NCBI GenBank assembly: GCA_036785375.1
Contig: JAWMAR010000424.1
Coordinates: forward strand, 496,001-560,000
Length of the DNA stretch: 64,000 bases
Source: Leucoraja ocellata
Lineage: Eukaryota
Reading direction: 5' to 3'
Both the position numbers and the translations under genes were made by a program. A model generated the notes under the pieces. The model ran no database searches, had not been told where the DNA came from, and saw only the letters and a program-made list of their open reading frames with translations. This document shows positions 16,393 to 63,114 of this stretch, piece after piece; the stretch's first letter is position 1, and every line of letters begins with the position of its first letter.

Positions 16393-16728
16393 ATTCGTTG
16401 GATATGAACATTTTTGCCAGTCCGAAAAACGTATTTTTGAATTCAGAGGTTTTGTTGGAATGTAAATTTACTGGGTTTACAGCACCGCTTGACTTGAGAA
16501 ATGTAGGTGTGCTGTGGTATGGACCAGGCCAGGAACAAATCTATGCTTTTGAAACGGGAGAACATAGGCGCAAGAAACCTGGCACAGAAATATCCGACAT
16601 TGAACTATCCAAAGGAGATGCTTCACTTCTGCTTAATAATGTCCAATTGGCCGACGAAGGGAATTATACTTGTGTTGTGTTTGTCACTCCCGAAAAGGCA
16701 CAAAAGAGTTCGGAACTGCGAGTTTTAG
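16393..16728 (+). CDS. NCR3LG1: IgV-set exon of NCR3LG1-like gene
   Basis: Acceptor ccatttAG at 16391-92 and donor GTAAAA at 16729. Canonical C (LLECKF), W (VLWY) and DxGxYxC (DEGNYTC); N-glycan sequon NYT. Confidence 0.92.
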
Positions 16729-19700
16729 GTAAAACACCGTCAACATTACCCGGGATGATCTGCTCTGTTATTATTGGATCTTGGTGGTTAAAATGGCTTT
16801 CACCAATTGGCCTTCATTGGCCTGCGTATTGAATATAGAAGTTTGGAGGTCATGTTGCAGTTATATAAGACGTTGGTGAGGCTGTATTTAGAGTATTGTG
16901 TTCAGTTCTGGGCACCATGCTGTAGGAAAGATGTTGTAAAACTGGAAAGGGTACAGAGAAGATTTACAAGGATTCGAGGGTCTGGGCTACAGGGAGAGGT
17001 TGAGCAGCCTGGGACTCTATTCTTGCAGCGCAGGAGGATGAGGAGTGATCTTATGGAGGTGTATAAAATGATGAGAGGAATAGATCGGGTAGACACACAG
17101 AGTCTCTTGCCCAGAGCAGGGGGATCGAGGACCAGAGGACATGGGTTTTAAGGTGAATTGTCCCTCTGTAAATCACCTCTAGTGTGTCGAGAGTGGATGA
17201 GAAAGAAAGGATAACAGAACTAGTGTGAACGGGTGATTGATGATTGACGTGGACTTAATGGACGTAAGGCAGAATTCAATGCTGATTCTCAAATAAAATT
17301 GCGAATGCAAAACTGTATAAAGAGTGACCATGTCAAAAGTATTTTAGTGTTCTCATTAATATATCCGACATAGCTGAATAATGTGGCAATCTAAATCTGT
17401 ACGTCGTCAAAGGTACTAAATTATAGGAAAGGAATGGTCAGCATGGACTCGATGGGCTGAAGGGCCTGTTTCCAAGCAGTATCAATCTATTAATCACAAA
17501 TCAACGTTAATTGACTTTTGAGGGTAAGGGAAATCTATTTTTATTAGGGCAAGAGTTGAAGGAAGGAAAGTGGTCCATTTTGTATCACCCCATCAATAGG
17601 TTAATATAGGACATAGGTTTAAAGTGAGCGGGGAGAGAGGAAAGATTTAATAGGAACCAGAGGAGCAACTTTTTCACAGAGGAGGTGGTGAGTGTATGGA
17701 ACAAGCTGCCTAACGAGGTAGTTGAGGCAGGTACTATAACAACATTTAAAAGACATTTGTACATGGATAGGAAAGGTTTAGAGAGTTATGGTCCAACACG
17801 GGCAGGTGGGATTAGTTTCCACGCTGCATGTCTAAAGTCTAAACTAGTATAGATGGGGTACTTTGGTCATTGTGGGCAAATTGGGCTGAAGGGTCTGCTT
17901 CTGTGCTGTATGACAGTGTCCCTTAGAATTAAGAGTCTTATAATGTGACTTAGATATTTCTGGTAATACACTGCACCGCCAACTAACCCGAGGTTGCACT
18001 TGTCTTTAATACAGCTCAGCCGAAGCTGCATTTATCCACACAACATGTTACCATTGAGACTGGTGCGGAGAAGCTGGTGACATGTGATGCTACGGGATTT
18101 TACCCTGAGGCACATAACATCTACTGGGAAAAAGTATCCAAGGATAAGACTGAGAAACTAAGCCACGATGTCTTCAACACACCTCCAGTTCGTAATCCGG
18201 ATAAAACCTTTAATGTCTCCAGTGCAATGAGAATTGAACCAACTCTAGTTGATAATGGCAATGTGTACAAGTGTGTCATGAAGCATAAATCATATACTGA
18301 CCCTCTCTCACTGGAGTTGAAACTCACAGTCGAAGGTATGTTACATCCTTTGGAAAAGTATGGTTTAGTTTGTTATTGCCAAATCTACCGAGGTACAGTT
18401 CAAAGCTTTGTTTGTGTGCTCTCGAGTCCAGAAAAGATTAGTTTAGTTTAGTTTATTGTGTGAAAAGTGAAAAGCTTTTGTTTGCATGTTATCAAGTCAC
18501 AGAAACATCGAAAAGTAGGTGCAAGAGTTGGCCATTCGGCCCTTCAAGCCAGCATGATCATGGCTGATCATCTAAAATCAGTACCCCGTTCCTGCTTTTT
18601 CCCCATATCCCTCGATTCCTTTAGCCCTAAGAACTAAATCTAGCTCTCTTGAAAACATCGGGTGAATTGGCCTCCACTGCCTTCTGTGGAAGAGATTCCC
18701 AACTCTCTGAGTGAAGACGTTTTTCCTCATCTCAGTCCTAAATGACCTACCCCTTATTCTTAAACTGTGACCCCTGGTTCTGGACTCCCCAACATCGGGA
18801 ACATTTTTCCTGCATCTAGTCAGTCCAATCCTTTAAGAATGTTATGATTTTACTAGACTAAGTGGGACCCGTTGTGTACCATGTGCACAGGGGAGTGCTT
18901 GTCACCCAACGCAATATTCCACCTCTCCACCAATTCCAATATTGGTGGCCAGTGGGGGGGGGGGGGGGGGGGGGAACAAAATTCAATTGCAGTTTCGTAC
19001 CACTTCAAGCAGAGTGCAAGGCCACCAAACGCTAGTGCTGTTTGATACCATTTCAAGCAGAGTGCAAGACCACCAAATTCAAGTGCAGTTTCATATCACT
19101 TCAAGCAGGGTGCAAGACAACCAAATTGAAGTGTAGTTTCATACAATTTCAAGTAGGGTGCAAGGCCACCAAATTCAAGTGCAGTTTTATAACATTTCAT
19201 GCAGGTTGCAAGGCCACAAAATTTAAATGCAGTTTCATATCATTTCATGCAGGGTGAAAGACCACCACATTCAAATGCTGTTTCATACCATTTCAAGCAG
19301 GGTGAAACCACCATAAAACCACACAAAACACCACATAAACACCACACTCACAGTTCAGTGTGTTCAGTTGATTCACAGCTCAGACAGAGTCGTGACCTCT
19401 CCCTCCCCATCTTGCTGAGACTGAGCCACACCCACACTTCCGGGTTTTATAATCCCTCCCCCTCCCACCGGAAGGGGCGTGGCCTTCATGGCGTGATTGA
19501 CAGGAGAGAGATTCTCAACATTATTTTAAACACCAATAACACTTTTACTTTTCATTGATGGGAAAAATCCTCTGCACCTGATGAGCGGAGGGGAACTGAG
19601 TAAGATGGCCAAAAATCACAGCTGTAAGTGGCAGCGTTTTATCTAAAATCAATATACATTGAAAACAGGAATTTGTCAATTTACCACCACCAACAACCAT

Positions 19701-22700: not shown

Positions 22701-25700
22701 GGTTATTTCACGTGGCATGGTGTTTGTGGATATGCTGATTCTTAGTGTTTTACATTCCAGAACCTGTGGAATATTCGTCAACAGGGGCTATTCTTGGAGT
22801 TTTATTTGCTGGAATTATTCTATGCGCACTAATTGCCTTTGGACTCTATGTTTACTTCGTGAAATACAGACCAGGTAATATGACAAATGGAGAATGTTCC
22901 TCAATGCGTTGTAATTGTCTGCCTCAAGTTATAGCAGCTACAGCACAGAAACAGGCCATTCAGCCCACCACATCCACGCCGACCATCGAGTACTCGTATA
23001 CATAAATATCAGTTCATTCAGCCCACTTTCCCATGAGCTCGTACCTGATCCTACCATATTCCTCACACACAAGCAGAAAGTTACAGGGCACAATTAATCA
23101 AACTTTTTGGGGTGCAGGAGGAAACCAAAACACCCAACATGGGGAACATGCAAACTCCACATAGACAACATCGGAGGTTAGCATTGAACCCCGCCTGTGT
23201 GCTGTGTAAAGTACTGGAGTTGTGTGGCTTTTGTAATTATTTGAATGCTTCTAGTTACATTTTCCCAACATGGAGGGCTGGTGATCTTTTAGTTTCAACT
23301 ACAGATGACCCTGTGATGATTGTATACCCATATAGACGGCAGCCAGGCTTGGAGCTTCTCTTTGAATGGCCCTCTGGGCATAACTTGTTTCAGTTATAAT
23401 TTCAGAGATACAGTGTGGAAACAGGCCCTTCCGCACCGACAAGTGATCGCCCCATATACCAGTTCTATCCTTCTCACTTGGGTCAATGTACAGAAGCCAA
23501 TTAACCCACAAACCTATACGTCTGTGGAATCTGGGAGAAAACCCACACGGTCACAGGGAGAACGTATAAACTTCGTACCGACAGCACCCGACGTCAGGAT
23601 TGTTCCTCAGAAAGAACATTTAGATTGCCAAGTTTTAATTACCTGCTTTGTTTTGACTAGTTACTCCAGGGATCACTGGACCCAATGGACATCAAACCAT
23701 GAAACATCTTGAAGAAAAAAAGACCACTTGGAGGGTTAGTCCATTCCGACCTCGTGAAATTATAATTTACTTATACCTAAAGAGGAAGGGGGATCAGGTG
23801 AGAAAAACTATTTTAGATTGGGACAGCAGAAAATCTACTGAAAACAGAAATGGAAAGATCAACGGAGAGGGTCACAATGAAGCGAGGATTCTCATAAATT
23901 CAAATTATGTCAATGCATCTTTTACACCATTGGAACCCAAATATGACACTGATGCAGATGGGATTTCCAGTGTGATGATCAATGTGGAAATATATCCAGA
24001 TGTTAACCAGGATGCAGGGGCTGAATTAACCATTGAAGTTCAACATAAATCACTGAAACAGCCGATATCAAAGACTTTGATACTGGATGTTAAAGGAGGT
24101 AAAGTATAAATGTTTTCTTTAATCATTAATGTCTATATATTGTGATTTCATTCTGAATGTCTTCAGAGTCATAGAGTATACAGCCTAGAAACAGGCCCTT
24201 CAGTCCAACTTGCCCAGCCGACCAACTTTGTCCCATCTGCCTGCATTTGGTCCATATCCCTCTAAACCTGTTCTATCCATGTACCCGTCTAAATATTTCT
24301 TAAAAATTGTGATAGTACCTACCTCAACTATCTCGTCTGGCAGCTTGTTCGATACACTCACCATCTTTGTATGAAAAGGTTACCCCTCAGATTCCGATAA
24401 AATCTTTCCACCCTCATCTTAAATCTATGTCCTCTGGTCATCGATTCACCTACTCTGGGCAAAAGACTGTGCATCTACCCGATCTATTCCTCTGATGATC
24501 TTCTACACCTCTATTTGATCACTCTCATCGTCCTGCGCTCCAAGGAATAGAGTCCTAGCCTGCTCAACCTCTCCCTATAGCTCAGGCCCTCGGGTCCTGG
24601 CAACATCCTCGTAGATCTTCTCTGCACCCTTTCCAGCTTGACAACATCTTTCTTGTAACAAGACTGAACACAATACTCAGTATTTCAATCAATACTCATT
24701 GAAATAAATGCGTGATTATGCGTTCATATTAACATCTATAATTTGTAACATTGATATGTTTTATGCAATGAGAGGATGGAACAGCACAACACATGAACGG
24801 CCCCTTTGGCCGACAATGTCCATGTTGAACATGATGCCAAGATAAACTAATCTCTGCTGCTTGCACGCAATCCATGTCCCTCCATTCCCTGCATATTTAT
24901 GTGCCTATCTAAAAGCTTCTTAAACACCACCATATAATAATGGGGGGGAGATTTCAACTGTGTTATAGACCCATACTTAGATAAATCAATAAAGCTAGGG
25001 AAGCGTCTTGTTAAAACTAAGACCTGTGAATTTTTAAATAATTATATAAAAAATAATAACATAGCTGATGTTTGGAGAATAGCAAATCCAAGTGGTAGGG
25101 AATACTCATTTTATTCATCAGTTCACAAAACTTATTCGCGAATTGACTATTTCTTATTGGACACAAAATTGATCCCGTATACGAATAAACTATCATATCA
25201 TAATAGTATTATTTCTGATCACTCACCATTGACTTTTATACTTAAAATTGAGGGAATGCCGAGTATAAAACCTTTTTGGAGGTTCAATGCACACATATTA
25301 AATAACCCGTAGGGTTACGAGTATATAAAAGAACAAACAAAACTTTTTTTCGAAATAAATGACACGCCGGGTATTTCTGCACCGCTATTATGGGAAACCT
25401 TCAAGGCATATATTCGCTTAACAAAGTTTTCAAAATAAGGAAAATAAAAGAGAACTTCAGCGGATAGAACAGAAAATAAAATTACTAGAACTGGACAATG
25501 CAACTGACCCAACCATAAATAAACATAATAAGATAACTTTATTGAAATATAAAGTCAATAGAATACTATCGGCTAAAGTAATAAGATTATTACAAATTAC
25601 AAAACAAGCACACTTCGAATTTGGGGATAAGCCACATAAACTACTTGCGAGGCAACTGAAGCAACGAGAAAAGGAAAAAACTATTACTAAAATTAAATCG

Positions 25701-28700
25701 GATAAGGGTGGGTTTCTAACATTGCCTAAGGATATTAATAAGCGGTTTGCCCAATTTTATCATAATTTATATACATCTAAAATAAAGACAGATGTAAGTA
25801 AAATTACAAATTTTTAAAATAATTTTTTAGATAATTGCAAGCTCCCAAAATTGGATAGTTTAGAACAAGAGCAAATAGGAGCACGGATTACTAGTGAAGA
25901 AATAAAACAAATAATAAACTCACTGACCCCAGGACCAGACGGTTTTAGTAATGAATTTTGTAAAAGATTTCAGGAGTCAATCGTACCAAGGTTATACAAT
26001 TTATACATGCAGGCTTATACTGAAAATAAACTACCAGAAACCTTAGCAGAAGCAACAATAACGCTTATACCAAAAAAAGATAAAGATTTAGATGAACCGG
26101 GTTCTTATAGAGCTATTTCACTTCTAAATACGGATCAGAAAATTTTAGCAAAGATTCTAGCTAGAAGGCTAAATAATTATATTAACAATTTAATAAATAC
26201 GGATCAAACAGGATTTATACCCAAAAGACAATCATTTAATAATTTGAGAAGGCTTTTCAATATAATGTACTCTCACAATGAGGACAATGAAGATATTTCA
26301 GTTGTCACGCTGGATGCAGAGAAGGCATTTGATCAAGTAGAATGGCAGTATTTATACAAGGTACTCCAAAAATTTAATACGGGAGAGAATTTTATTAGAT
26401 GGATTAAACTACTTTACGATAGACCTACGGCAAGAATATTAACTAACAATACGCTATCTCCAAAATGTTACTTATCAAGGGGTAATAGCCAAGGGTGTGC
26501 CTTATCACCATTGCTATTAGCCCTTATGATAGAACCGCTGGCCGAAAGGATTAGAAATCACCCGAATATTCACGGATATAACACCAAGGACTTAAAGAAT
26601 AAAATTTCATTATATGCCGATGATATCCTTTTATATATTACTAATACACAAACGAGTATACCCACCTTATTAACACTAATTGAGGAATTCGGCTCTTTTT
26701 CAGGATATAGAATAAATTGGAATAAAAGCGAGATTATGTCTTTAAAACCACAGAATTCGAGACACTTACTAAAATTTCCCTTCAAAATTGCAACAGAAAA
26801 ATTCAAGTAGCTGGGTATTCAAATTACGAGAAGACACAAATCATTATTTAGTGCCAATTTTATAGCACTATTAAATAAACTGAATGATACGATTAAATTT
26901 TGGAAAACGCTTCCGCTCTCATTGATAGGTAGAATTAACGCTATAAAAATGACTTTCTTACCACAATTAATATATTTGTTTCAAGCGATCCCAATATATA
27001 TCCCAAAATATTTTTTCAAAAAACTAGATTCCACCATCACTAATTTTATATGGGACTACAGAACACATAGAATTCAACGAAAGCATTTGTGCAAATCTAA
27101 AGAAGTTGGGGGTTTATCATTACCTAACTTTATGTATTACTACTGGGCAATGCATATTAAGAACATAATGTACTTGCTGGATAGTTCCACTCAGCAGTTG
27201 GAGTGGATAAGAATGGAGAAAGAGGAGTGCTATCCGCACGATATAGGAACGATCCTGCTCTCACCGATAAAATTGAATAGTATAATATATAAGAAGAACC
27301 CAATTATTCACAATATAATAAGAATTTGGAAACAAATAAAAGTATCCTTGAAATTAAATAATTTATCAGTACTAACCCCACTATTGAACAACCCCGCATT
27401 TAAACCTTCTCTCATCGACAACACATATCAACAATGGGATAGACTGGGGATTAGGAAAGTAGGGGATATGTATGAAGTGGGCAAACTGTTATCATTTCAA
27501 CTATTAAAATTTAAATTTAAATTGAAGGATAATCAATATTTTAAATATATACAGTTATGTGACTTTATGAAGAAATATACACATAGATTTCAAACTATAT
27601 TTTTAGACACTTTAGAAGAAGCAATGAATATTAAGGCTGATTCACAAAAATTAATATCATACTTTTATAATAATACTAGACGAAGTGCAGACCCGTTGGG
27701 TCTGCTCCCCCAATGGTGTGATCCCCAACCCAATATTCCACCATGCACCCGTCTCCTCCAACGGAACTGAGCCCGTTCCCAAATGTAAGATTCCAGCACT
27801 CCCCTGCCTCCCTAGCAGTGGATTGAAAACAAATTCCAATTGCACCTACCCTGCCTGCTGCAGCAGTTCCAATTGCAATACCAATTGGCCCTCCCCCTCC
27901 TGTTGAAGCACTTGCTGTGATATCCCATCGAGGTGAAAAGTTCAGAGTGTTCCTGTCTTGCAACTTTGTTTCGAAGTGTGTTGGAAGCTGATAGGAAGGA
28001 GCAGCGAATCAAAAGGAAGTAAGGCAGCCGGCAGCCGGACGGCAGGCGGCAGCCACAGACTTTTATATAATAACTAGACCAAGTGCAGACCCGTTGGGTC
28101 TGCTCCCCCAATGGTGTTTCCCCCAACCCAATATTCCACCATGCACCGTCTCCTCCAATGGAACTGAAGCCATTGCCAAATGTAAGTTTCCAGCACTCCC
28201 CTGCCTCCCTCAATTGCACCTCCCCTGCCTGCTGCAGCAGTGATAAGTTCAGTGTTCCTGTCTTGCAACTTTGTTTCGAAGTGTGTTGGAAGCTGATAGG
28301 AAGGAGCAGCGAATCAAAAGGCAGCCGGCAGCCGGACGGCAGGCAGCCACAGACTTTTATATAATAGATAGATAGATAGATAGATATTAAATGGAATAAT
28401 AGGAGAAGATACCAATTTAAATAAAGATCAAAATCTTTTTTTTAATTATGGGTTAATAATTGGGAAGAAATTGATACTTAAATTTTGGAAAAATACAACC
28501 ATACCAACTGTTAAAATGTGGATTAGGAATATGATGGACATAGCACGCCTTGAAGAAATGAGACTCCGACTAATAGATAAATATGACCAATTCTTAAGGA
28601 GTTGGTCTCCTTTCATCGACTTTTTGGAATCATGTGATGCAGCGGTACCGTAAAGATTGCTGATTTCAGTTCATGACGCGGATAGATCTACATCTCCGAA

Positions 28701-31700
28701 TACAGATTTGAAAAATTCTCTTTTAAGGGGCCTTCTCTTCTATTTTTACTTTCCACTTTCTCTCTTTCTTTTTTATTTTTTACATACACACTTCACGTTT
28801 TTCTACTCTCTACCATCTATTTTTCCACTTTTTCCTCTTTCTATTGTTTTCTTTTTCTTGTCTTGCTTACTTCCTTCTCATAACATAAAACTAGAGGTTG
28901 TACATAGAATGGATTACGGTATTACATAGTTGGCACCTAAAATTAGGTTCCACTGTACTGTTTTGTACTGTATTAACTTCTAATAAAATAAACAAAAAAA
29001 CCCCAAAAAAAAACCACCACCATTATATCTGCCTCCACCACCACCCCTGGCAGCGTGTTCCACGTTGTGTTTAACAATGAACTTTGCCCCTCACCTCTCC
29101 TTTAAACTTTGCCACTCTAATCTTAAAGCTATGCCCTCCAGTCTTTGACATTTTTACCTTGGGAAAAATATTCTGACTGCCTACCTTTTATCATGTATGT
29201 CTCGATGGGCCAAAGGGCCTGTTTCCACGTTGTACCTCTAAACTAAACTAAATCAGGACCGCTTTCTGGTTGGTAATAGGATGGTTCAGTTGCCTGATGA
29301 CAACTAATACATTAGTTATAGTAATACATTTACAATGGGGCGACTAGAACTGCACGCAATACTCCAACTGCGGCCTAACCAAAGTCTGCAGACCTGCAAC
29401 ATGACCTGAATGCTTTTAGGAGATTCTCTCATCAGTCAACTCAAAGTCACGGAAAATTCACACAGTAATGTAATATATTCTTGTTTTTGTGTATTTCTAC
29501 TAGTTGATTTGTTTGTTTTCTTTTCTCAAAGTGCCACCCAAGGTTTCAAACATCTTCAAACCCTCTTGCATCATTCACAATAAATCTGCATCTTTGATCT
29601 GTTCAATCACTGGGTTTAAACCGAGACCTTTACGTATCACGTGGCAACGAAAGAGAAAGAACATGGAGGCAGAAGAAATAGTTCGAATGGAGGCGGACAA
29701 CAGGACAACTATTCACGGTGGTGACGGGGCGATGTCCACATATAAACATTACATCAGTGAGATGAAGCATGATGATGAATCCTACAGCATCACTAGTGTA
29801 CTAGAGATAGTGCCTGATATACAGCAAGATCAAGACTCGCTTTACACCTGTAAAGTACATCACAGTGGCACCAGTGACCAGGAGAGAGAAATCAAGTTAA
29901 TGATTACAGGTATATAATACTTCCATCTAAGCCTTGCATTGACAGAGGATGCAGAGTGCTTACTCATTTGGAATGGTGTCTTAAATATCATACCACGACC
30001 ATTAATGTACGCAGAGCGTTTGAAGGGTCTGGGTCTGTACTCGCTGGAGTTTAGAAGGACGAGGGGGGGATCTCAATGAAACCTACTGAATAATGAAAGG
30101 CATGGATAGAGTGGATGCAGAAAAGATGTTTCCACTAATGTGAGAGTCCAGGACCAGACTCAGAGTAAAAGGATGTACCTTTAGAATGGAGATGAGGAGG
30201 AATTTCTTTAGTCAGAGGTTGGTGACTCGGTGGAGTTCATTGCTACAGACAGCTGTGGAAGACAAGTCATTAGGTTTTTCAAAGTGGACATTTATAGGTT
30301 CTTGATTAGTAAGAGTGTCAAAGGTTATGGGGAGAAGGCAGGAGAATGGGGTTGAGAGGGAAAAATAGATCTACCATGATTGAATGGAAAAGTAGACTAG
30401 ATGGGCCGAATGGCCTAATTGTGCTCCAATAACTTATGAGTGTATGAATTATCTAATGATATAGAACGTAGAACAGTACGGCACAACCGCCCGACACACA
30501 ATGTCTGACCAACACTCATATGCCTGCACATAATCCATATCCCTCCATATCCATGTGCCTATCCAAAAGTCTATTAAATGCCACTATCCTTTCTGCCTCA
30601 ACCACCATCCCCGGTAACGCGTTCCAGACACTCACCCCCTTCTATATTAAAAAAAAATTGACCCACACATCTTCTTTAAAATTTGCCCCTCTCACCTTAA
30701 AACTATGGCCTCTAGTATTTGATTTTTCTATCCTTTTATTTCCAGACAGAGGCTCTGACTGTCTACCCTATCTATGCCTCTCCTGATTTTATGTACCTCT
30801 ATCAGGTCTCAGACCTTTTTGACCACCCGATCTACCTGCAATTCCACCTTCAAGGAACCTTGCACCTGAACTCCTACATCCCTCTACTCTACAACACTCC
30901 CCAGAGCCCTACCATTCACTGTGTTGGTCCTGCCCATGTTAGACTTCCCAAAATGCAACATCCTACATTCTCTGTATTAAATTCCATCAACCATTCCTCA
31001 GCCCACCTGGCCAATCGATCCAGATCCAGCTGCAATTCTTCACAACAATTTTCACTAACTGCAAAACCACCCATTTTTTTTAACCTTATGTTTCTGCCGA
31101 CAAGTATAGATTCCTTAATTTATTTTCTAGCATTAACCTTAGAACTATAATCTGCACTCTGTATCTTCCCCTTAGTTCTATCTATTGTACTTGAATTTGA
31201 ATTGATTGGGTTTATGCCTGGTACTGATCTGATCTGATCTGGTGGAATTGCCTGCAAAGCAAAGCTTTTCACTGTACCTGCACATGTGACAATAATACAC
31301 CTGAACCTACACCACGTGATTTTACTAGAATAAGACCTTCTGCTATGAGACACAAGCGCAGATGCCGAATTGTTTCAATTTATATTCCCTGGGTTGACAG
31401 AGAGACATTTTGTCCAGTGTGAATATCCCAGAATTGTTCATTCTGAAGTCTAGTAAACATTTGGCTTGTAGCAGGGATGGGATTAGAGGGAATTTGATGT
31501 CTAGAGTGATGTATTTAACTAAAAAACAGTTGTACGTAACTTGTGATGCAGCAACATGCAGATCTTTAGTCGGGTCAGGCTTCTCTTAGAGTCATAGAAT
31601 CATAGAATCATAGAGTGATACAGTGTGGAAATAGGCCCTTCGGCCCAACTTGCCCACACCGGCCAACATGTCCCAGCTCCACTAGTCCCACCTGCCAGCA

Positions 31701-44174: not shown

Positions 44175-47100
44175 TGGATCCAGTGGCGCTATGGTGGCTT
44201 AGGACACGCGCTGATCACCTCCGCACCGCAAAATGCCAAAAACCTATTGAAAATTTAAACCGGACAGACCTAAAAATACTCACTGGCAGATGTTCAGCAG
44301 TCGCGTAAGTGACGTCATCAGAACGCAACCCCGGTACTTTTAAAATGCCCGTTAGGCGTTTGCCTAAACACCCGCGGAAACATCAACCAGAAGTTGCTGA
44401 AGGCCACGAAGAAGCCTCAACCTTGATTATGGCACACCCCCGAGAGGAAGCAGCAAGGCAACCTCCGGGTTTGGTGGAGGACATCCGTTCAACATGGTGT
44501 CAGGAGCTTTCGGCTGTGAAGGCAGAAATCTGTGACAAGATTGACAAGATTGATGCCCGAGAGGGAGGTGAATGCCGACTTGAAAGGGGAAATCGACAGG
44601 CTTGAAACCGACATCAGCCATAAGTTGGAACCTATTCTTGCTACTTCACAAAAACAAAGCGAGGCTATTCGGGAATTGGAAACTACTGCGGCTTTAAATG
44701 ACGAGACAACACACAGTCTGACAGCTGAGGTGGAACGTATCTCCGGGTTACTAGCTAAAGTAACGGAAAAATGTCTAGATTTGGAAGGGCGCTCTAAATG
44801 TCAGAACCTCAGGATTGTTGGAGTGAAAGAAGGCAAAGAACTTGGTTAAAATCTTCGAGATTTTACGGCTCAACTACTTCAAGACATACTCTCTTTGGAT
44901 GAAAAACCTAAACTTGACCAGGCTCACAGAGCTCTGAGAGCCAGGTCAGGCATCACTGCCCCACCAAGACATTTGATCCTGTGGGTGCACCACTGCCATG
45001 TTCTAGAGGATATTCTGCAGAAAGTTGCCAGCAACAGAAACCTAAAATTTCAAAGTGAAAACATACGAATCTTCAGGGACTTCCCTGCCAAAGTCGTTAT
45101 GAAAAAAACACTCTTCTCCAAGTCAAGAGCTATTCTGAGGGACATATCTGATCTCCGATTCGGCCTATTATATCCTTCCAAATTGAAAGTTACTTATAAA
45201 GGGGTTGAATCCTTCTTTACTGATCCTGATAAAGTATTCAAGTTTGCCCTGGACACTGGGATCCGTCAAGGGATAAGTAATACTTTACTGACTTTGTACT
45301 GTGATGATAATCAATAAGTTTATACTGTGTTTATAATCAATAAGTTGTTATTAACCAACTCTAAGTCTGTAGATTTATATGTTAAAACAGTATTAATATA
45401 CATCAATACCAACACTTAAAATGTGGATTGCAAGTATGTTGGACACCGCTCATCTTGAGGAAATGCGATTCCTCCTAATGGATAAATTAGACCAATTCGT
45501 AACGAGTTGGTCTCCATTCGTCGTTTTTTTGGAATCATATGGTGCAACACAATTGTAAAAAATAACTGTTTCAGGACTGGACGAGGGTTGGTCAAGATTA
45601 TAAATAATGATCTCCTTTTTTAAATTTTCTTTTCTTTTCTCTATTTTCTCTCTCAACTTTCTTCATTTACTCGTTTTCTTTCTTCACACACTATATATTT
45701 CACATCCTTCTATCCTTTACTATCTAACTTATTTTTCTAATTCTCATTTTTTTTCAATGTAACAAAAAAAAAAAAGAAGTTGTACATAAAATGTATTATG
45801 AAAATATATATTAGGCACTTTGGTGCCATATGACTGTACTTACTTCTAATAAAATAAAATATTTAAAAAAAAACCCAGTATTAATAGAAAGTTAAGTAAT
45901 AAGTGCCGTATGTTAGTTAAATTTCTCAATATTCAACGACTTAGTTAGATCCCACTAAGATACTTAATGTTGATTCCCTGATGGATGTAAATATTTTAAA
46001 ATATTTTTAAAGTTTGTTCTATTTAGTTTTTATTAACTCCTTAACCATATAACCATATAACAATTACAGCACGGAAACAGGCCATCTCGACCCTTCTAGT
46101 CCGTGCCGAACACGTATTCTCCCATAGTCCTTAAGGTGCAGAGTTATCTAATATTATCTATCTTACGGAAGCTTTCATTAACGTAACCACCATTGGGTGG
46201 TATTCACTAGCAACATCCTTATATGCTGTCATTTTTGTTGTTTCTCTTTTTCACTTTCTAATTTATTTACTAAATATCTCATCTATCTTTACATTTTTCT
46301 TGGAGATATCTCTGGGGGATAGGGGAAATGGGGATAGGGCTCACCCACCCAGCATTTAAAGGAAATATTTCAAATAATGTGTTGGACCATTTAAATCAAA
46401 AGAGACCATGTAAGCTTTAAAAAGCAAGATGATGTAGCTAGGAAAATAGGAGGAATCACATTTTGTAGTTGGAATGTTAGGGGCGTTAATGAGCCAATTA
46501 AAAGGGGTAAAATATTAACCCATTTAAAATCTATTAATACTGATATAATATTTCTTCAGGAGACGCATCTCAAAAATGGAACTCACAAGGGTAGGTGGAT
46601 TGAAGGGTAGGTGGATTGGACAATTATATCACTCTACGTTTTCTTCCAAAGCAAGAGGAACAGCAATTCTAATTCATAAAGGTATACCATTCAAACATAA
46701 ATCCACTATAGCTGATAAGGAAGGCAGGTACATTATAATATCAGGGGAATTGTATTCAATCCTCCATTGCACATGGTGAATATTTATGCTCCTAACTTCA
46801 ATAATCCTTTTTCTTTTTATCTTTGTGGTTTTTTTTCCACATATACAATGTGTATTTGGACACTGGTCTCATATTTAGGATATACCTGTTATTAATGTAA
46901 TCCTGATCCCTATGTATCAACATCATTGTTATGTTTATCATTATTCTTTTTGCTTTGTTTTGTTTTAGTTTTTTGGAAAAAAAACGAATAAAAAGATTTT
47001 AAAAGAAAGAAAGATCAATACTTGGATAAATCTTCACTTCAAAGGAAAAGTACATCAAAATCAAGTGACCTTTTAAATAGCTATATAAACAACACAAACA

Positions 47101-50020
47101 TATGAGACGCATGGAGGATTGCCAATCCGTCTGGAAGAGAATACTCTTCTTATTCAGCTGTTCACAAAGTTTACACACAAATTGACTATTTCTTGGTTGA
47201 CGCTAAACTTATCCCTTTTACCTATAATGCAAAATATCACAACATTATTATTTCGATTCACTGTCCTCTTACTTTTTCAGTAAAATTGGAAGAAATGTGT
47301 AATAAACAACCATTTTGGAGATTTAATCCACAAATACTAGCTGAGGCAAGTTATTGTTACCATCTGAAGCTACAGATGAAAACATTTTTTGAGACAAACG
47401 ACAGCCCCGGTATTACTCCATCTTTGCTGTGGGAAACATTTAAAGCCTATGTCAGAGGCTGTATTATCACATAGCAAGCTTTTCAAAATAAGAAAAATAA
47501 GACTGAACAATTGGAATTAGAAAAACAGATAAAACTGTTAGACCTAGAAAAAACGGCTGACCCAACCATTGCAAAAAATAATAAGATAGCTGCACTAAAA
47601 TTTAAATTCAACCAGATTCTCTCAGCAAAAATTATTAGGGTATTTCAATATACTAAACAGAAACATTTTGAATTTGGTGATAAACCACACAAGCTACTAG
47701 CACACCAACTTCGCAAATTAGAGAATGACCAAACGTATTACACACAAAATTAGATCAGAAAAAGGAGATTTGCTTACATTGCCTAAAGATATCAATGGAA
47801 GATTCTTACAATTCTACCAAACACTATATTCATCAAAAACAACAGTCGATCCTGCAAAGATGAAAAGCTTTCTTGAGAATTGGAATCTCCCATCTCAAAA
47901 TGAGGGGGAACGGGATGAATTAGGCGCAGAGATAACAACAAAATACATTGTAGAGACTATTAAAACATTGAAAAGTGGAAAAACGCCTGGGCTTAACGAA
48001 TTTTTTTTTTTTTAATGATTTAATTTCTCCACGTTTACATTACTTTACATTCAAGCATTTAAAGAACAGACTTTACCACAAACTCTTGCTGAATCAACCA
48101 TTACATTAATTCCAAAAAAAGATACAAATCTCAAGTAGCCTGTATCCTATAGGGCAATGGCCCTTTTAAATACGGATCAGAAGATACTAGCTAAGACTTT
48201 GGCTCGTAGAGTAAGCCTAGTTATCGGTAAACTAATACATCCAGATCAAACTGGGTTTATACCTAAACGACACTCGTTTTAGAATTTGAGACGTTTGTTT
48301 AACATAATATATTCGCAGAGAATGGCAAACGAAGATTTAACAATTATTTCTCGAGATGCAGAAAAGGCTTTCGACCAAGTGGAATGGTCTTTTCACAGTT
48401 GGAAAAATTCCAATTGGGAGAAAACTTAACGTTATGGGTGAAGCTTTTATACACTAATCCGACAGCTAGAATACCGACAAATCAAATGCTTACACCTAAA
48501 TTTTATTTATCTAGGGGTAACAGACAAGGATGTGCCCTTTCTCCAATGTTATTTCCTTTAGCCATAGAACCCCGTGCCGAGAGTATCAGATCCCATTCAG
48601 GCATTTATGGATATAATACCAAACATACCTCCAGTAAAATCTTGTTATATGCAGATGATGTACTTTTATACATTACTAATCCCCAAGTTAGTATTCCAAA
48701 TGTTTTAAACATTATAGAACAATTTGGTTCTTTTTCTGGATACAGAATAAATTGGAACAAAAGTGAAATCATGCCAAGAACAGAACAAGACCCTTCTCAA
48801 CTCCACAATTTCCTTTCAGAATTGTTACTGAAATGTTCAGATATCTTGTAATTTACCAATATCCTATCTCCCTTATTGGTAGATTAAATGCCATAAAGAT
48901 GATCTTCCTTCCGCAACTTTTATATTTATTCCAATCAATACCGATATATCTCCCTAAAAGCTTTTTTTTTTAAAAATTACTCTATTGTCACTAACTTTAT
49001 TTGGGACTACAAAACCCACAGAATACACAAAAGATATTTGTGTAAATCCAAAGAAAATAGAGGATTAGCTCTACCTAATTTTCTTTTTTACTACTGGGCA
49101 ACAAATATTAAAAATATAACTTTCTGGTTGGACGATACGTCAACATGTAAATTGGTTAAAAATGGAGAGGGAGGATTGTTTGCCTTTTAGTATGGGCTCG
49201 ATCCTCCCATCTCCAATACATTTGAATAAGTCAACGTATGAGCAAAATCCGATAATACATAGTACTGTCCGTATCTGGAAACAGCTGAAATTCAATCTTA
49301 AATTGAGAAATATGTCTCTCCTTCTTCCTATTGGAAACATTCCCTCATTTCAACCATCTACTTTAAATGGGGTGTTTGTTCAATGGAAGAACCTGGGAAT
49401 CAATACTGTGGGAGACCTCTATAAGAAGGGGACTCTCTCTTCTTTTCAAGAACTACAGGAGAAATATCACTTGAATGCCAATAATTTTTTTAGATACCTT
49501 CAAATCCGAGATTACGTGAAAACATATACACAAGACTGTCCTTTTATGGGTCCAGATATATTAGACGATTGTTTGAATAGACATGCCGATACAAGTAAGT
49601 TGATATCTTACATTTATAACACTTCTAAATATTGACACCCCACCCTCTGAGATTTATAGGCGAGCATGGGAGGACGAGCTGGGTTCATCCATTTCAAAAG
49701 ATATATGGGAGGAAATACATACATTACTGTTCTTTAAATGCCAGGCATTGCCTGATACAATTCAAATTATTGCATTGGTTATACTACTCAAAGACCAAAT
49801 TGGACAAGATCTTCCCAACTGTCTCCCCTCTTTGTGATAAATGTCACTTTCAAGAAACCACCCTAACTCATTCTGTATAAAATAAGTTAACCTGTATAAA
49901 AATACAAAACTTGTGGACGGAAATATTCAATATCATTTCTAAAACACTTAAAATGTAATTGGAGCCAGATTCAAAACTAATAATATTAGGAATGTCAGAG
50001 AGCTGTCCTAATCTAACGAT
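44175..50020 (+). mobile_element. Near full-length degenerate L1 (ORF1 + ORF2) with nested inserts
   Basis: ORF1 coiled coil plus LDLEGRSKCQNLRIVGVKEG and RIFRDF..LLYPSKL; ORF2 endonuclease from about 46450, RT QGCALSP..LYADD and CDKC knuckle. Multiple stops and frameshifts. Confidence 0.88.
45399..45875 (+). mobile_element. L1 3' end inserted between ORF1 and ORF2 of the host L1
   Basis: AATAAA and poly(A) end; TSD cagtattaata at 45388-98 and 45876-86; resembles 28500-29010. Confidence 0.75.
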
Positions 50021-61174: not shown

Positions 61175-61374
61175 NNNNNNNNNNNNNNNNNNNNNNNNNN
61201 NNNNNNNNNNNNNNNNNNNNNNNNNNNNNNNNNNNNNNNNNNNNNNNNNNNNNNNNNNNNNNNNNNNNNNNNNNNNNNNNNNNNNNNNNNNNNNNNNNNN
61301 NNNNNNNNNNNNNNNNNNNNNNNNNNNNNNNNNNNNNNNNNNNNNNNNNNNNNNNNNNNNNNNNNNNNNNNNNN
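61175..61374. other. Assembly gap (200 N)
   Basis: Run of N. Confidence 1.
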
Positions 61375-63114
61375 TGTATCACTCTCTTCCATCACAAGTA
61401 GATACTGTCTCAGCCATTGAGAATGATCATAATCCTGGTACATTTGTGGTTTGGTGGGGAAGTTTGGTGCTGGTCTTTCATTGACTGCCTAGTAATTCAT
61501 ACAGATGTTTGTGGCCCTGGCCGTGCAAGCTTTGGGAGACCCTGATAGAAATATCTAACATGATTAGAGGCATTGATAGGTGTCGAAGTCAGAACCGTTA
61601 TCCCAGAGTGGAAATGTCAAAGACTGGAGGACATAGCTTCTAGGTGAACAGGGCGAAGATTAAAGAATATGTGCAGAGCAAGTTTTTTTAAACAGAGAGT
61701 GTCTGGAACACGCTGCCAGGGGTGGTGGTGGAGGTAGATACCATAGTGGCATTAAATCGGCTTAAATGGTCACATAGATATACAGGGAATGGAGGGATAT
61801 GGATTATATACAGGCAGATTAATTTAATTTGGCATCATGTTCAGCATGGACATTGTGGGCCGAAGGGCCTGTTCCCGTGCTGTACTGTTCTAAATTTGTT
61901 CTTTCCATATGCCATTAAAGCATAGTTTTTTTCAGTTGCCTAGTTTTTCTATATTTTTCTCATTTTTTCCTTTCTATGTACATTAGCTTAATCTCTTAAT
62001 CTCTCCTTTCCAATATGCAGCAGCAGGATTTACTTTATTGCCTGTTCAGATCTGCTCTGATCAGCGACAACCTCTTCCCCCCCCCACCGCACTATCCTAC
62101 ACATTACGGACAATTTACAATCTTACCAAAGCCAATTAACTTTCAAACCTGCACGTCTTGGATTGTGGGATGAAACCGGAGCACCGAGAGAAACCAACAC
62201 AGGTCACAGGGAGAAAGTACAAACTCTGTATATACAGCACTTGTATACACAGCACGATTGATCCCAGGCTTTTGGCGCTGTAAGGCTGCAACTCTACTGC
62301 TGTGCCACTATGCTGCATCTAAAACTAACTATCACACACCACTCTTCTGTATGTGTGGGTGAGTCGAGTCAGAAATTGAGGTGTGAATAGTCCTGTAAAC
62401 CCTTGAGTTATTTCTGATTGCAGCAGGTCATGGAATCACTAATTGGAATTCCTATGCCTTTAATTAAAGGGGATATAAATTGCACAATTATGGTTTCAAT
62501 GTATTTAATAACTGTCCCCCCCCCGCCCCTTCCACCAAAATTCCTCCCTCCATGTTACATTTCACTCCTCCCCTTCTCTCCTTATCTGACATATTTTGTC
62601 TCCTTATCACCTCTAGCCTTTTGTCCACCCATCCTCAAATCAGTAAAAATCCCTCCTCACCTACCACTTTGTCCAACCCCCATTTTCTTATCATCTTTCC
62701 CCCACTACAATCAGACTGAATGAAGGTCCAGACCCGAAACGTCACCTATCCATGTTCTCCAGAGAAGCTGCTGAGTTACTCCAGCACTTTGTGTTCTACA
62801 CAACATTTTGGCATCTGCAGTTCCTCGTGTCGCCTCTTTAAAATCCTGTCCACGTCTATTGTTATTTACTATTGGCAAAAATGAAGGAGTCTGCAAATAA
62901 AGAAGGTTATTTCACGTGGCATGGTGTTTGTGGATATGCTGATTCTTAGTGTTTTACATTCCAGAACCTGTGGAATATTCGTCAACAGGGGCTATTCTTG
63001 GAGTTTTATTTGCTGGAATTATTCTATGCGCACTAATTGCCTTTGGACTCTATGTTTACTTCGTGAAATACAAACCAGGTAATTTGACAAATGGAGAATG
63101 TTCCTCAATGCGTT
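61375..63114 (+). repeat. Duplicated block homologous to 21460-22910
   Basis: Colinear match from tgtatcactctcttcc to ttcctcaatgcgtt, with scattered substitutions and several indels of tens to about 100 bp. Confidence 0.92.
62965..63078 (+). CDS. Second copy of the TM exon (paralog or alternate haplotype)
   Basis: 114 nt, matching 22761-22874 except AGA>AAA (R>K), with splice sites intact. Lies in a duplicated block right after the gap. Confidence 0.7.

Follow-up and report, generated by a model that had tools for sequence, protein, structure and literature searches.

Introduction

Human B7-H6 (NCR3LG1), the ligand of NKp30, is built of a signal peptide, a V-set domain, a C1-set domain and a single transmembrane (TM) segment, which are followed by a non-Ig, Gag-related tail. 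Its gene is linked to KCNJ11 in the human genome. Among the extracellular modules of adaptive immunity, the C1-set domain is the hallmark; it makes up the constant domains of immunoglobulins and T-cell receptors and is also found in MHC alpha3, beta2-microglobulin, tapasin and SIRP. To our knowledge, every C1-set domain described so far has a disulfide and lies outside the cell or in a lumen, and the class as a whole has been thought of as extracellular only. Ig sandwiches of the cytosol are represented by the I-set domains of titin, obscurin, palladin and MyBP-C, many of which lack a disulfide. As for the trafficking of membrane proteins, acidic dileucine signals of the form [DE]xxxL[LI] bind the adaptors AP-1, AP-2 and AP-3, and they are usually found in unstructured tails.

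Here we follow up a prediction, made from the DNA alone, on an exon of a B7-H6-like gene of the skate Leucoraja ocellata. The window, by which we mean the whole analysed stretch of 64,000 nucleotides, harbours this exon (hereafter X) as the first one after the TM segment.

Results

Five exons, all of phase 1-1 and on the + strand, were found in the window in the order V, C1, TM, X and Y, with a signal-peptide exon about 4 kb upstream of it (G000:C424:492059-492194). The V-set exon (16393..16728), which encodes the first domain of a B7-H6-like ectodomain, has B7-H6 as its best PDB sequence match (E 6.5e-12) and is spliced to the C1-set exon (18015..18335; PF07654 E 6.9e-12), which encodes the second one, with both Cys and one sequon. 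They are followed by the TM exon (22761..22874), with the positive-inside end KYRP, by exon X (23661..24098) and by exon Y (29532..29909), which encodes a second post-TM C1 domain keeping the Cys pair and the Trp. All four introns between these exons are spliced out at GT..AG in public runs, as judged by intron-skipping contigs (runs X1 and X2, which are only guessed to be RNA) and by raw RNA reads (runs X23 and X24). The TM-X junction (22874/23661) is present in contigs of runs X1 and X2 and in nine X24 reads (none in X23), and the X-Y junction (24098/29532) in contigs of the same two runs, 35 X24 reads and one X23 read. Moreover, a single 1720-nt contig of run X2 covers V-C1-TM-X-Y, with three differences in X, so the five exons are joined by splicing in this order. 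The X-Y intron also contains (24941-28650) one of two broken L1-type LINE copies with endonuclease and reverse transcriptase frames, the other one lying at 44309-49877, and the rest of the window carries many CR1-like and Penelope-like fragments, all of these labels being assigned by eye from the frames.

Among named proteins, the nearest are uncharacterised ones of skate, 1225-1273 aa long, and a record of Leucoraja erinacea matches the V exon of the window at 100% identity. Twelve elasmobranch homologues share the layout SP-(V-C1)n-TM-X-Y-Z-D4, followed by D5-D7 in varying completeness. A HMMER search for the family yielded 60 proteins at E<=0.001, and the 19 distinct relatives that were named include chimaera, sharks, coelacanth, bichir, lungfish, frogs and newts, with X-related first post-TM domains ranging from chimaera to amphibians. 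One family member of Bombina carries the NCBI name NCR3LG1. When the ectodomain of a shark orthologue was compared with PDB sequences, the closest entry was human B7-H6 (E 4.6e-35, versus 4e-17 for B7-H3), a one-way best match. The signal peptide, V, C1 and single TM of the window gene are likewise those of human B7-H6, whereas its family's tail, with up to seven C1-type domains, differs from the human one. The V-C1 ectodomain would be a ligand of an NKp30-type receptor. In three proteins (P0034, P0035 and P0039, from chimaera, horn shark and catshark), the entire tail consists of three to seven tandem X-type domains, without Y or Z. Tandem acidic repeats of 15 residues are found between the last two C1-type domains of P0001 (~1114-1170) and P0003 (~1003-1125), their copy number differing by isoform and species.

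No IRK match was found on contig C424, which carries the window, among 23 matches, so that a KCNJ11 neighbour was not detected for the window gene. Another contig, C40, contains a B7-H6-like gene of structure V-C1-TM-X-Y-Z-D4-D5-D6 (6472178-6488098, minus strand) tail-to-tail with a KCNJ11-like gene. Since this different member is the one adjoined by the KCNJ11-like gene, the window gene was filed as a B7-H6-like paralogue and not as the orthologue; the C40 gene is likely the syntenic orthologue of NCR3LG1 and the ancestral state, because its X retains the Cys pair and the Trp. A synteny search with PI3Ka returned 14 matches, none of them on C424 or C40. Judging from five V-exon matches, including the window gene, C424 holds a cluster of paralogues. 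One of them (C424:616437-647230) shows the same exon series, and its X has a B-strand and an E-strand Cys, no F-strand Cys and the loop sequence DQQSLI. A further one (C424:357970-377093, minus strand) has V, C1 and an X-type exon with W at the B-strand position, and two additional V exons map to 216703 and 1222337.

Exon X spans 438 nt (146 codons), is of phase 1-1 and is flanked by AG..GT. As the original prediction held, it has no Cys in any of its 145 whole codons, and it exceeds the C1 exon (321 nt, 107 codons) by 39 codons, close to the 40 aa that had been anticipated together with a long loop; the surplus corresponds to the C'-D loop (residues 60-83, 23840..23911). An alignment of 94 domains places W23 (23729..23731) at the B-strand Cys position, L37 at that of the C-strand Trp and I124 (24032..24034) at the F-strand Cys position. 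The two readings proposed for the cysteines, a W in strand B and a lost Cys in strand F, were thus confirmed, and from the L/Y suggested for the C-strand Trp the L was retained and the Y (Y38) discarded. Among 53 X domains, position 23 is C in 26, W in 19, F in five and Y, L or V in one each. A Trp of the C' strand, W53 (23819..23821), is W in 46 of the 53 and may be a candidate substitute for the lost core Trp.

In Pfam, the X of the window gave no match at E<=10, whereas exon Y and the C1 exon both match the C1-set, and a PDB sequence search with X alone returned nothing significant. Its homology therefore rests on the family alignment, the tree and the model, to which a BLASTP match to Y (E 7e-08, 23% identity) can be added. 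The AlphaFold2 model of X, obtained from a 14-row alignment, has a mean pLDDT of 80.8 and the strand order of a beta-sandwich, with pLDDT<50 at residues 60-83. Foldseek with this model found Ig-type domains exclusively, and the top VIA structural match has Z 12.3 and an rmsd of 2.0 A over 102 residues; the best matches are mixed Ig domains that leave the Ig set unfixed. The fold predicted for exon X is thus an Ig sandwich that carries a disordered loop, in agreement with the original proposal of an Ig fold.

A tree of 94 rows, whose deep forks are weak because it was built on 128 columns, groups X and Y as sister domains with support of 98/84, which supports the earlier suggestion that the two post-TM exons arose by tandem exon duplication. 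A second tree, of 56 rows, was rooted on five Y domains after omission of three near-duplicate ray rows. Its earliest branches are the X domains of C40 and of a sawshark, both with the Cys pair and the C-strand Trp, and every other X in it lacks the F-strand Cys. Among the 53 X domains, the F-strand Cys is absent in 52 and the B-strand Cys survives in 26, and a reading of the 56-row tree, in which some branches are weakly supported, indicates that the latter was replaced by W, F, Y, L or V roughly seven times, each on its own branch. The scores for the Pfam C1-set (PF07654) fall along the same series, from the C40 X (E 3.5e-08, passing the cut-off) to the X of a C424 paralogue (E 0.12) and the X of the window (none); a C1-set profile match, as proposed for checking the domain, is therefore found in the family and not in the window exon. 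In the Atlas, a shark X is nearest to C1-set clusters (0.92). Descent of X from a C1-set domain is indicated by its sister relation to Y and by this series, even though the B-F Cys pair and the C-strand Trp of the set are replaced in the window by W23, I124 and L37.

Loss of the cysteines is conserved, with the canonical pair left in one of the 53 X domains. Nonetheless, the branching order, the repeated changes of the B-strand Cys and the falling Pfam scores describe a loss that is stepwise and convergent, the F-strand Cys going first and the B-strand Cys several times later, rather than a single paired swap of the disulfide for hydrophobic residues, as had been assumed. A B-E disulfide in place of the B-F one was also considered, since an E-strand Cys occurs in 36 of the 53 X domains, and set aside: 14 of these 36 have no B-strand Cys, and the X of the window has neither.

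The position of X relative to the membrane was approached through its homologues. All 12 close ones have one TM beyond the N-terminal signal segment, and among 31 distant V-C1-X proteins (28 with and three without TM) 24 of the 28 carry more positive charge behind the TM than ahead of it. Glycosylation sequons are enriched exclusively before the TM (88 observed versus 54.3 expected), the figures after it being 102 and 93.6. For the count of Cys pairs, the X set combined 15 close sequences with 38 of 58 new hits (20 were dropped as fragments or for want of a full X after C1), and new hits were added to the other domain sets only where Y directly follows X. The canonical pair is retained in 37/38 V and 41/41 C1 domains and, after the TM, in 1/53 X, 41/42 Y, 40/41 Z, 1/35 D4, 5/25 D5, 0/19 D6 and 3/20 D7 domains. 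The disulfide pair is thus gone from five of seven post-TM domain types, the lost side being B in D6 and mostly F in the others. From the single TM, the charge bias, the sequon distribution and this loss we strongly infer a cytosolic topology, and X very probably lies in the cytosol in the membrane form of the protein. The original claim that Cys loss independently supports this topology is upheld for the topology and not for the argument, because the next two post-TM domains, Y and Z, retain both Cys, and loss in one domain is no proof; the retention of the pair in Y and Z despite their position counts against a cytosolic location, as do the three TM-less proteins, one of which arises by exact exon skipping.

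The C'-D loop contains EARILI (23879..23896, + strand), an acidic dileucine-like stretch ([DE]xxxL[LIM]) that could be regarded as an adaptor-binding sorting signal, and whose L77 is invariant in 14 aligned X sequences. Loops of this family measure 20-45 aa and show a mean identity of 15%, compared with 32% for the rest of the X domain (40 non-redundant rows). The motif occurs in 27 of 53 X loops and in 16 of the 40 non-redundant ones, with a mean of 1.9 and a maximum of 9 in 5000 shuffles, and its strict form [DE]xxxL[LI] in 11 of the 40 versus 1.7 in shuffles, counts that are not independent events because the sequences share ancestry. Of the 21 loops that have L[LIM], 16 carry an acidic residue at -4 (5.0 expected), compared with two to six for each position from -8 to -5 and from -3 to -1. 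Per 100 aa, the motif occurs 0.52 times in X and 0.06-0.25 times in the eight remaining domain types, and it was found in chimaera, horn shark, coelacanth, frogs and newt. It is missing from 24 of the 40 non-redundant loops and from the X loop of the KCNJ11-linked gene. As acidic dileucine signals do, EARILI combines the acid spacing with a membrane-near position and predicted disorder, on what would be the cytosolic side; unlike most of them, the X motif sits in the loop of a folded domain and often ends in M. A clathrin-adaptor sorting signal is its likely identity.

TM-X-Y is repeated 38-44 kb downstream, past an assembly gap (61175-61374), where a second TM exon (62965..63078, + strand) continues as X'-Y'-Z-D4-D5-(D6 remnant)-D7 beyond the window. 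Only this downstream copy runs on to Z-D7, and no remnant of Z, D4, D5 or D7 was found between Y and the gap, the copy of the window being either a partial duplicate or a second haplotype. Neither these missing downstream exons nor the conserved motif of the loop had been part of the original prediction. Two haplotypes may have been joined in tandem in assembly G000, in which other genes are also present twice with equal scores. Near-identical signal-peptide exons at C424:463462 and 492059 flank an assembly gap at 473533, with a further gap at 557175, and a second V exon of the window gene is absent from G000, although RefSeq skate proteins have V-C1 twice, which suggests uncollapsed haplotypes or missing sequence. 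All RefSeq isoforms of the closest named protein are of the X' type, and X' differs from X by 25 nt and a 6-nt indel. Since four of the five listed Y differences of the run X2 contig are those of Y', X and X' may be either alleles or gene-converted paralogues.

The differences between X and X' are 24 nonsynonymous and one synonymous (p 0.039), compared with 6/2 in Y and 2.9% in the pooled flanks. Codons 1-50 (window 23663-23812 versus C424:563857-564012), a region picked after looking, show 20 nonsynonymous and no synonymous changes (p 0.008). Diversifying selection on X is only suggestive, a lead, because the signal drops to p 0.09 once codons 42-50, which surround the indel, are left out, and to p 0.26 when only the 61-nt 5' flank serves as reference; gene conversion could also be distorting this comparison.

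Discussion

On balance, we lean towards X being a C1-derived, disulfide-less Ig domain that lies in the cytosol, just beneath the membrane, in a B7-H6-like surface protein, its loop presenting an acidic dileucine sorting motif. The domain, no longer needing its disulfide, would have lost it stepwise while keeping a hydrophobic core. Through the motif in its loop it would engage clathrin adaptors (AP-2, AP-1 or AP-3), which would draw the ligand into endosomes and thus keep its surface level low or regulated. The rest of the C1 array would serve as a cytosolic scaffold for partners. Both Cys loss and the loop motif are shown by the alignments to be conserved across the family. The strand order of X fits the C1-set domains from which it derives, which differ from it in having the B-F pair and the C-strand Trp and no long loop. 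With titin, obscurin, palladin and MyBP-C, the predicted X would share a cytosolic Ig sandwich; those domains belong to the I-set and to soluble proteins of muscle or the cytoskeleton, whereas X would be a C1-set domain in the tail of a membrane protein of the immune system.

The same cytosolic domain could have lost its cysteines under relaxed selection, with the acid-xxx-LL stretch docking on the domain or binding a non-adaptor partner and having nothing to do with trafficking. Such a reading is possible, if on the unlikely side: it would account for the sporadic, repeated loss of the B-strand Cys, for the E-strand Cys left unpaired in 14 of 53 domains and for the 24 of 40 loops without the motif, and docking would be compatible with the low AlphaFold confidence in the loop, whereas it does not anticipate an acid placed specifically at -4 in 16 of 21 cases, the spacing of known sorting signals, within a loop of such low identity and variable length. 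A quite different view is that the protein exists both in the membrane and, after skipping of the TM exon, as a secreted form with the post-TM domains outside, the disulfides of Y and Z then serving the secreted form and X being a disulfide-free spacer. Because all exons are of phase 1-1, TM skipping keeps the frame; Bombina isoform X2 (P0062 versus P0111) lacks precisely the 34 aa of the TM segment, which would make it a secreted protein, and three of the 31 V-C1-X proteins have no TM. We nonetheless regard dual topology as improbable, as sequons are not enriched after the TM, five of the seven post-TM domain types lack the pair, and skate RNA contains C1-TM and TM-X joints and no C1-X joint among the 15 of 67 joints listed.

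It is also conceivable that the copy in the window is a duplicate that has been truncated and is decaying, or else an assembly haplotig, the details of its exon being functionally meaningless. The missing Z-D7 remnants, the two signal-peptide exons around another gap, the doubling of other genes in G000 and the X' type of all RefSeq isoforms would all agree with this. Its frame and splice sites are intact, however, and the run X2 contig that spans V-C1-TM-X-Y is far closer to X than X' is (three differences versus 25 nt plus the indel); Cys loss and the motif are, moreover, common to full-length orthologs, which makes such a reading very improbable.

Returning to the cytosolic domain with a sorting loop, a broader scenario can be drawn, which we put forward with considerable doubt. 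An ancestral jawed-vertebrate B7-H6 would have had a cytosolic chain of C1-set domains whose membrane-proximal member lost its disulfide stepwise, the adaptor-signal loop would gate the display of an NK-cell ligand, and the fast-changing first third of X would be a surface attacked by immune-evasion proteins of pathogens inside the cell.

A literature search and the passages considered of PMC12227049, PMC13262535, PMC11599192 and PMC10751288 describe no cytoplasmic Ig domains for B7-H6; the likeliest source, Flajnik et al. 2012 (PMID 22488247), lies outside that scope, so that absence from print is not established.

A family that keeps cytosolic C1-set domains from chimaeras to amphibians would offer a natural series, with both Cys, one or none, for disulfide-free folding, and the folding of an Ig constant domain without its disulfide bears on intrabody design. 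Finally, the loop motif provides a testable mechanism by which cold-blooded vertebrates may control the surface level of an NKp30-type ligand.
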